A stretch of 64,000 bases of DNA from Negaprion brevirostris (taxonomy: Eukaryota). The stretch is from positions 27,820,943 through 27,884,942 of the forward strand of contig JARDVH010000115.1 of the NCBI GenBank assembly GCA_030324005.1, given 5' to 3'. The notes below the pieces were generated by a model, which saw only the letters and a program-made list of their open reading frames with translations, was not told where the DNA came from and made no database searches. This document shows, in pieces, positions 34,901 through 37,900 of this stretch (the stretch's first letter is position 1; every line of letters starts with the position of its first letter). The position numbers were made by a program, and so were the translations under genes.

Positions 34901-37900
34901 CCGACTATAAGCATTAAACTATGAACATGGGACACGGTGTTGAACCTCTAACTCAATCACACTAAATAACCTCCCACTAGAAGCAAAACCTGCTACCACA
35001 ATTCCATGGTGACAGAATCTGTTCCTTGATGCAGAACTCAATATAAGCATAGGGGAAAGCAGTTACTACCTTTGGCCAAATCACAAAACCTACATGAAAT
35101 ATCAAGCTGACCTTGGGACTAAGCTAACAATTTATAAAGCCGTATTCTCAGCATCTTACTGTATGGCCGTGAAACAGGAAGCACTTAGCTTACTTTTCAT
35201 GGAAGGATATACTTGTATTGAGGTGGTACAGTGAACATACGCTAGCTTGCTCTCAATCAAGGAACCATTATCTATGATGAAAGACTCAGTAAATTGGGCC
35301 TATGCAGTTTAGGAGAAAGAAANNNNNNNNNNNNNNACTATCAAATAAATCGGTTGGACTTAAACCTGGTGTTGTCAGACTTTTTACTGGGAAATTTAGA
35401 ACAAAAGGGTAGAGTCTCAGGATGGAGGTCAATCATTTAGGACCAAAACAATGAGAAATTTCTACACTTGGAGGGTAGTGAATCTTCGGAACTGTCTACC
35501 CCAGAGAGTTGTGGATGCTCCATTATTTATCATCTTTAAAAACTGAGGTATAGATATTTCTGGTCTTGCCTGCTACAGGAACCATAATGAGTGGGACAGA
35601 AAATTTGGCGGACCATTTAATGTTGACCTCAAGTGGGAATTTCATGTCTTGGGCACACATGGCTGGAAAATTCCACCCTTGAACTCAATTGAGATATGGA
35701 GAGTGCACATGCAAATGGAGTTGAGGAAAATGATCAGCCATAAAAATTGTACTGAATAGCAGAGCATGTTTAAGAGGTCACATGGTCTACTCCTGTAACT
35801 ATGTTACTCACCTGTGCAATAGCCCACTTCACCATTGGACCACAAGCCAAAGATGCTCTGTTGACTATTTCGTAGTTGTAGCTTGGATTGGACATGTAGT
35901 TTTTCTTCATCTTCTCGCGAATAACATCACTGATGAATAAAAATGAACAATGTTAATGCAACTGCCCTCTTGAAATTTTAGGGACGGAAATTTATCAGTG
36001 TGTTAGAGCGCTAGTTAAAAATTAGGTGGTGCATATCAATGAAGAGCTGCAACACAGTCAAAATGCAAGATAAATGTGATTTTTAAAATAAAAATAATGA
36101 ATACCTTAATTCTTCAGTATTAAAGTTGACTATGCTGGTGATGAAATTATCTCTGATAATAACTTGTCTGATCTTTTTCCAGTCATTTGTCTCCTCACCC
36201 AGCAGGAGACAGATTGATTCTAAAGCGAGTTTTACTGCAGCAGGTGGATTGGCCATGGCTCTCACTTCAACAAGATGCTGCTTCTTTATAGAGCTCACAG
36301 CTAATAGAGGGGTGAAAAGAAAGGGGCCATAAATGGACATGCAAAAGGATAAGGGTGTATACAGCCACTGGGATTTGAAAGGAAATCTTTTACTTGAAGA
36401 CCAGCAGTACATTTTGTCACCCAAACAGCAAATTTCTTTGGTAATAAATGCTATGCCTAAATCTTTTAAAATTCAATTCAATTATTAATTGCTTTGGTAG
36501 TTTTTCAGCTTTAAGCTTTGGCTGGTCTTCTGGGCAATTTCCTTCTAACCCAGCAACTGCATGCACCCCATTATTCACCTGATTTCGTCAGCTGAAAAAT
36601 TTACTATGGTCGGAATGAAGTTTTCCCTCATAATGATCGATCGGATTTGTTTCCAGTCAGTTGTACTTTCGCCCAGGAGAAGACAGATTGACTCGAGCGC
36701 TAGCTTCACTGCACCTGGCGGATTAGCCATTGAACGAACCTCTACCAAGTGCTGCTTCTTGATCGATTTTACAGCTAATCAGACCAGCACCGTAGGCCAC
36801 AGTGCAAATAAACAGTAAGAGAAAGTGAAGATTAGAGAAGAAGAAAATCGAGAGATAAACACCACACAGAAAAGATCAGTTATTCAGTTGTTTAAAAAGG
36901 TAGAAAATTAATAGGATTATAGTTCCAAAAAATATAAACTAAATAAAATGTTACTACAGATAGCAATTCAGCATAGTAGATAAATTTCATTAAAAGATAT
37001 ATTTTATAGAAAAAGCTCAATTCAAAACACATCTAACCATTCTGAGCCTCAATAACAGCAGGCTCTACCATGTCCAGATCTTCCTTTACTTTCATCTGTT
37101 TGTCAGCAATAATTTCCTGTTGCTTGTGAAGCTGCTCCTGAATTTCTTGACTCATAACCTATCAAAGATAGTGAAAATGTCTCATTTGATCAGACTTTGC
37201 TCTGAGCCCAAAATTTTCATTCCAAATGAAGAGTTCTTAAGCTAAATTACCTTTTTCTTTTCAGCTTCTTGTTGATCCTTCACCATTTTCTTCAACTTAT
37301 CATTGGCTGCTGCATTTTTAACCTCCAATTCTTGGCTCTTAATTCTCAGATCACGCCGCAATTCTTCAACCTGAAATGAGTGAAATTTTTTTTTTTTAAA
37401 AAATAGCAAGCGTTTATCATGACATTTCCATTGCAAGTCAATCAGAGCCACCTTGCATTAGTATCCAGGTCTACATTTACATGGAGCAAAAGCTGTTAAC
37501 ATTCTTTGGTTTACTGGTAAAAGAAAATATTTTTACACATTAACAAATAAATGAACACTAGAAAAATAGGATATCCTTGAAAAAAAGGGTGGCCAAAGGT
37601 AAGAGAAAAAATCCATATTGGATTTACAAAAATGTAAGATGTTTAGTAAGGTTTTCTGCCATTTCTGTGCTTAATACAGGTAGCGGTATAGATGGAGAAA
37701 CCAACCACCATTTGGAGCATTAGCCCTTGAGGCCTCAATGATACTGGAGCCTTAGATACTACAAGACATGAGCTGCCATACCAAAGCGGAATTTCATTTC
37801 ATTCAATCTTGCACATACATTAACGTCTCAAGCCAATATAGCGTACAAGTCTAATGTGAAGATCTCAAAGGATTGGTTCAGATGAAAACAGTGAACTTGC

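Follow-up and report, generated by a model that had tools for sequence, protein, structure and literature searches.

Does a single dynein-1 heavy-chain gene give sharks two alternative microtubule-binding domains? Dynein-1 is regarded as having one heavy chain and one track-binding domain, a view that derives from mammals. A preliminary description of 64,000 nucleotides from Negaprion brevirostris (the window, by which we mean this whole stretch) proposed that the cytoplasmic dynein-1 heavy-chain gene (dync1h1) contains two mutually exclusive exons for part of the microtubule-binding domain (MTBD). We consider it probable that these tandem exons, which are spliced singly in related species, let one gene make two MTBDs that likely differ in their grip on tubulin. 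This reading builds on the exon pair, both of its splice paths, purifying selection, and the conservation of one of the exons from cyclostomes to reptiles, all of which are established below.

The gene lies on the minus strand of the window. Exon A (36579..36774) is the mammal-like version of the MTBD segment (human residues 3296-3359), and exon B (36105..36300) is the alternative version. The donor of the upstream constitutive exon (37038..37158), which encodes stalk coil CC1, can be joined to A or to B (joints 36774-37038 and 36300-37038), and the acceptor of the downstream constitutive exon (35813..35929), which encodes the MTBD from helix H5 onward, is taken by A or B. A 263-nt intron (36775..37037) precedes A and is covered by contigs from relatives; a 278-nt intron (36301..36578), with one long predicted hairpin, separates A from B. 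As first described, both exons are 196 nt long, have AG/GT ends, enter in phase 1 and leave in phase 2, and are free of stops. The 16 residue differences between them also stand (among 64 whole codons; 59 of 196 nt differ), as does their silent divergence: 28 of the 48 codons that encode the same residue differ (pS 0.81, pN 0.16). The reading frame continues across the flanking exons with A alone or with B alone, and including both or neither leads to a stop. The exon has exactly two matches in the shark genome, which are A and B. This confirms that the two tandem homologous exons of shark dync1h1 are a real pair.

Exon A contains 10 CpG dinucleotides, and no 196-nt window that we scanned has more (B has 1, and the mean is 1.7 per 196 nt), and these are nearly invariant across relatives. 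An unusual RNA structure does not account for the excess: the fold z-scores are -0.3 for A and +1.0 for B. Rfam has no matches within the window.

The assembly has a flaw elsewhere in the gene. The exons for residues about 2919-3016 (42093-42479, within the interval 41601-42494) are on the opposite strand, and there is a 55-nt inverted overlap (98% identity) of 41226-41280 with 42440-42494. The overlap lies beside a gap of Ns, and we take it as a sign that a contig was assembled in the wrong orientation and that the inversion is not real.

Such a flaw in the same gene would favor reading exon B as an assembly artefact or a dead duplicate. But an independent DNA run covers 35600-36885 within a single contig, and B is spliced, conserved, and present in a curated zebrafish protein (see below), so we give this view almost no credence.

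For splicing, we compared 8 of the 22 listed sequencing runs: seven RNA-like runs (from six organisms and seven studies; RNA status was guessed) and one DNA-like run. The runs are from relatives, not from N. brevirostris itself, and have no tissue labels. They are available as contigs, so rare forms drop out, and we did not take contig depths as a measure of expression. The upstream-A and A-downstream joints were found in six of the seven RNA-like runs. The upstream-B joint was found in five, the B-downstream joint in five (a sixth run has it as a 19-nt loose end, by our hand reading), both B joints in four, and any B joint in six. The DNA-like run contained no joints. Run X12 has only A, in a contig of 13,859 nt, and run X8 has B spliced in a contig of 3,493 nt and A solely with introns. 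The short side of many of the joints is 26-29 nt, with a maximum of 29 nt for upstream-B; long-sided joints were found for upstream-A, A-downstream, and B-downstream, and none for upstream-B. In the RNA-like contigs of relatives, both A and B thus connect to the upstream and to the downstream exon, and the proposal that B is spliced into messages has held up.

Both exons are well conserved among these relatives. The three organisms that are more distant have 1-2 substitutions relative to the window among the 196 nt of A, and likewise of B, and the neighbouring exons differ at 3-7 positions per ~120 nt. All six of the exon differences listed among relatives are silent.

Are the two exons mutually exclusive? 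Neither the A-B joint nor the joint that skips both exons was found in the seven RNA-like runs, where contigs lose rare forms and decay would hide both. The A-B intron is retained across contigs in five of the seven runs, which suggests that it is not spliced out by itself.

A strong fold is predicted for the A-B intron (-78.2 kcal/mol, z = -3.71, with 1 of 200 shuffles equally good), and its fold energy is below that of each of the 117 GC-matched tiles from the window. In the predicted hairpin, a 5' arm (36521..36569, minus strand) begins 9 nt past the donor of A, and a 3' arm (36352..36405, minus strand) stops 51 nt short of the acceptor of B. Four helices of 6, 14, 10, and 10 bp pair 36569-36521 with 36352-36405, with probabilities of 0.89-0.99. 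The 3' arm ends 2 nt before a candidate branch-point A at 36350, and there is another candidate at 36330. The linear distance from the A donor to the candidate branch points is 228-248 nt; it would be about 11-31 nt if the predicted stem forms. Three relatives (organisms B, C, and D) have kept both arms and have replaced the apical loop, and there is a weak echo of the 3' arm in two tetrapod-like records. The changes listed for the four core helices include no two-sided compensatory change: five alter one side and leave the pair intact, two break pairs, and four are in loops (changes were scored singly, and the 36556/36365 pair of organism D was judged by hand). A comparison of intron translations gave weak support: three of six records came to 4-7 of 500 shuffles, and for one of the three composition by itself is the likely reason.

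We also considered pairing between docking sites and selectors, as in Dscam, and rejected it. Among 10 pairs of segments, none that involved an intron gave a duplex better than all 20 shuffles; only A versus B did so, with an irregular duplex.

We propose that the hairpin enforces exclusivity in sharks: it would bring the A donor to within ~10-30 nt of the B branch point, which is below the steric limit of roughly 50 nt between a donor and a branch point (PMC7969005). The frameshift would then send any message with A+B, or with neither, to decay. Alternatively, the exclusivity might be only apparent: A+B and skipped messages would be made and then lost to nonsense-mediated decay, with an incidental hairpin. 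This fits with the exon length, which is not a multiple of 3, so that both forms reach early stops; with contigs that cannot reveal rare or decayed forms; and with a stem that lacks two-sided compensation. It does not explain why the fold is so far from the shuffles, why the arms were kept while the loop was replaced, or why the A-B intron stays in the contigs of most runs. The layouts in other animals also argue against it. In a teleost, there is no AG in the 146 nt that precede B, and four distinct invertebrate introns between copies of the exon are just 51-108 nt. These layouts are simple steric ones and reach the same end by other means. Overall, we consider decay as the sole cause of exclusivity to be rather unlikely.

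The choice between the two exons may depend on the weak acceptor of A and its predicted distant branch point. The intron before A has a 162-nt AG exclusion zone and a long pyrimidine tract, and the part of the tract beside the AG is weak (55% pyrimidine). Candidate distant branch points are predicted at -102 and -58. The A-B intron also contains two UGCAUG motifs, a density per 278 nt that is reached by 0.35% of window tiles. The first (36565-36560) is 14 nt past A and mostly within the 5' arm of the predicted stem; the second (36338..36343, minus strand), also of the RBFOX type, is ~40 nt before B and outside the stem. RBFOX proteins are enriched in neurons and muscle. Since RBFOX action depends on the position of the motif (PMC7404189), motifs downstream of A and upstream of B may let RBFOX favor A in neurons and muscle, which would leave B to other cells.

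To examine how widespread exon B is, we scored 143 vertebrate proteins, omitting one frameshifted model, one gapped protein, three that lack the segment, and short records. B is present and intact in 44 of the 143. The carriers include hagfish, lampreys, sharks, rays, bichir, sturgeon, teleosts, frogs, turtles, lizards, and snakes. In six cases (zebrafish, eel, Xenopus, Mixophyes, turtle, and skate), two isoforms differ solely inside this exon. The curated reference for zebrafish DYNC1H1 (NP_001036210, UniProt:Q2LEK1; P0289 in our set) carries B, which is the non-mammalian version. B is absent from all 23 mammalian and all 7 bird proteins (coverage of the main amniote cluster was 15 of its 1102 members). 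An amniote-like genomic locus contains A and no remnant of B in its 641-nt intron (53 and 76 of 200 shuffles were equally good). Similarly, DYNC1H1 is not in the supplements of two catalogues of human exon pairs (PMC5740500 and PMC8373072), where our control, TPM1, was found. B was apparently lost in mammals and birds, so it would be dispensable there. As a side observation, a turtle has two dynein-1 proteins (P0252 and P0254) that are 40 positions apart, which suggests a lineage-specific gene duplication.

The preliminary description had also argued that both copies are under purifying selection. This is borne out by dN/dS, with one pair of sequences for each exon: 0.047 for B (shark versus the teleost locus L055) and 0.006 for A (shark versus L001). 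Both values are far below 1, and B is intact in its carriers, so these two checks do not refute the proposal either. The tree of the exon, built from 67 rows of chosen representatives, agrees: the vertebrate B sequences form one group (support 100/99), as do the A sequences (96/84), and there is a lamprey sequence in each. This implies that the pair is older than the split between jawed and jawless vertebrates. Joining A and B in a single vertebrate clade was not rejected (p-AU 0.596), and the backbone of the tree is without resolution, so a single vertebrate duplication, independent of those in invertebrates, would be compatible with the tree. Judging from these proteins, exon B is an ancient vertebrate exon that extends from cyclostomes to reptiles.

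Lampreys have two dync1h1 genes, which are 83.6% identical and are on separate contigs. All nine proteins from gene 1 (P0121 and P0262-P0269) contain B, and all six from its paralogue (P0142 and P0291-P0295) contain A. Going by the protein annotation, lampreys appear to have split A and B between two genes, which would be a case of splice-isoform separation. This outcome of gene duplication was defined by Abascal et al. 2015 (PMC4494069), and as in their cases, each lamprey paralogue shows one of the ancestral exons. Unlike their cases, the lamprey split is seen in annotation and not in genomic DNA; also, their survey began from human exon pairs, and the portion of its text available does not mention dynein. 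In hagfish, all three dynein-1 heavy-chain proteins (P0120, P0270, and P0271) carry B. These are 91-93% identical to each other, which suggests lineage-specific gene duplications.

What would the alternative exon do to the protein? The segment is similar to the MTBD structures 3J1T (E = 1e-28) and 6RZB (E = 2e-27). It had been mapped to the end of CC1 and helices H1-H4, and this holds in a predicted model of a teleost B isoform. In that model, CC1 extends to exon position 2, H1 is at 6-13, H2 at 20-32, H3 at 40-47, and H4 at 52-57; H5 is in the next exon. The pLDDT is about 79-90 over the segment, from an alignment of 24 rows that are mostly A-like. Exon A was said to match the mammalian sequence, and it does so at 62 of 64 residues, though not at all of them. 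B was said to have one extra basic residue in H3. That residue is indeed gained, yet the net charge of B is one lower (0, versus +1 for A) because K3297 is lost and E3331 is gained.

These differences are fixed across vertebrates. K3297S, S3331E, and Q3337K are found in all 27 distinct B sequences and in none of the 19 distinct A sequences. Similarly, the residues at S3340, P3349, T3350, and A3356 are never common to A and B sequences. Of the distinct sequences, 26 of 27 for B have a net charge of 0, and 13 of 19 for A have +1. B has diverged faster than A: the mean number of differences among distinct sequences is 11 for B and 3.3 for A.

The movement of H1 governs the affinity for microtubules, and the interface is formed by H2, H3, H4, and H6 (PMC6629372). 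Single charge changes within the exon's segment, K3336N and R3344Q, reduce the processivity of human dynein (10.1101/092791). In simulations, mouse K3298, K3299, R3306, and R3342 touch the tails of tubulin (PMC6125590), and the charge of H3 sets dynein-1 apart from dynein-2 (PMC12706001). The contact residues that are named in papers (human K3300, K3301, E3306, R3308, K3336, and R3344) are unchanged or still basic in almost every B sequence, so any effect of B is likely to be tuning. B retains the residues known to touch tubulin, loses a lysine at the CC1/H1 junction and gains one in H3, beside K3336, and adds an acid in the H2-H3 loop. We predict that this shift in charge modestly alters affinity or run length, or how sensitive the motor is to tubulin tails, and is not an on/off switch for binding. 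From these changes, A and B likely differ in their grip on tubulin.

It could instead be that the pair is real and exclusive and the two MTBDs are equivalent. The cassette would be kept for regulation of splicing or of the message, and the fixed differences would be neutral or would compensate for each other. The conserved contact residues, a charge difference of only one, and the absence of B from the mammalian and bird proteins would all fit. It would also fit that both exons are strongly conserved at the nucleotide level in sharks, which suggests a constraint on the RNA. On the other hand, three positions are invariant in every distinct B sequence and never shared with A. Lampreys hold both versions on separate genes, where a splicing switch is needless, and the same exon has been duplicated and has diverged in many invertebrates. 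We therefore view equivalence as improbable and prefer the reading in which the two MTBDs differ.

Two versions of the exon are found in isoform pairs from damselflies and a cockroach and in gene models from a beetle, a bee, a sea spider, a snail, and two nematodes. A second version was not seen in the 15 listed proteins from amphioxus or in the listed decapods. Among 79 metagenome loci, many of which are short, 63 have the exon at exact AG-196/199-GT borders and 13 (10 of them distinct) have two full copies. As far as these sequences go, repeated duplication of the MTBD exon and a single old duplication are both possible. Of 11 invertebrate introns between copies that we folded, two have z < -2.4 (two others were too long to fold), so an intronic hairpin is not general.

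Two observations on the invertebrate copies are worth recording. The introns between copies in L078 (268 nt, z = -2.6) and L076 (582 nt, z = -2.5) are a possible parallel to the shark hairpin. Also, the second copies from the nematodes Trichuris and Romanomermis (P0347 and P0360) have ~30% ungapped identity to A, and they are the most altered version of the MTBD that we found.

A broader scenario is possible, though we hold it tentatively and think it somewhat doubtful. The foot of dynein-1 may be switchable in most animals, with the 196-nt MTBD exon having been duplicated repeatedly (in vertebrates, insects, chelicerates, molluscs, and nematodes). Vertebrates would use foot A in neurons and muscle, and foot B for a different tubulin code. 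Sharks would make the choice with an intron-long hairpin and RBFOX, lampreys would have placed the feet on two genes, and mammals and birds would have lost B. If so, work on dynein from zebrafish and Xenopus has mixed two motors. Even without this scenario, if B behaves differently from A, then a single gene supplies two motors in most vertebrates, zebrafish and Xenopus among them. The pair is also a natural, half-billion-year-old experiment on the placement of charge in the MTBD, and the charges involved adjoin residues that are mutated in human cortical malformations.

The pair is annotated as RefSeq X1/X2 isoforms and is otherwise apparently undescribed. Models of non-mammalian DYNC1H1 in RefSeq and UniProt contain the same A and B exons (X1 and X2 of Danio rerio and of Xenopus laevis, and models from Amblyraja, Narcine, Heterodontus, and Chrysemys). 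The B exon of the window is identical over 64 residues to Heterodontus X1 and Narcine X3. These isoforms differ from the account given here in being database models, for which we found no description of the domain, its regulation, or its function. In the literature that we searched, from which subscription journals are largely missing, we found nothing on a vertebrate pair, an MTBD pair, or a functional difference between A and B; the portion of PMC11802352 available has nothing specific to the pair.

Steric hindrance is known from other tandem exons. Dscam exon 17 reportedly consists of mutually exclusive homologous exons that are kept apart in this way. Alpha-tropomyosin, alpha-actinin, and exons 4a/4b of OGDH (PMC7969005) are, like the shark pair, tandem duplicates with long AG exclusion zones, and they have less than ~50 nt from donor to branch point. 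In the shark, by contrast, donor and candidate branch points are more than 200 nt apart along the RNA, and a short distance would require the predicted hairpin. As for function, the exon clusters of arthropod muscle myosin heavy chains (PMC3228551) are likewise mutually exclusive and fine-tune a motor domain; myosin is another motor, in which the tuning was studied, and for dynein we infer it.

The closest known case is in dynein-1 itself. A mutually exclusive exon was reported in DHC1 of Schistosoma mansoni (Pillmann et al. 2011, PMC3228551) and was cited again by Kollmar 2016 (PMC5100056), who assigns splice forms of this kind to the motor domain. The passage on this exon in PMC3228551 names neither the MTBD nor vertebrates, and our database hits for the exon included no Schistosoma sequence. 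As in the shark, the middle part of a dynein-1 gene has two homologous exons of equal length, and codons are split at both ends. By this analogy, the Schistosoma exon is likely the same exon as A/B.
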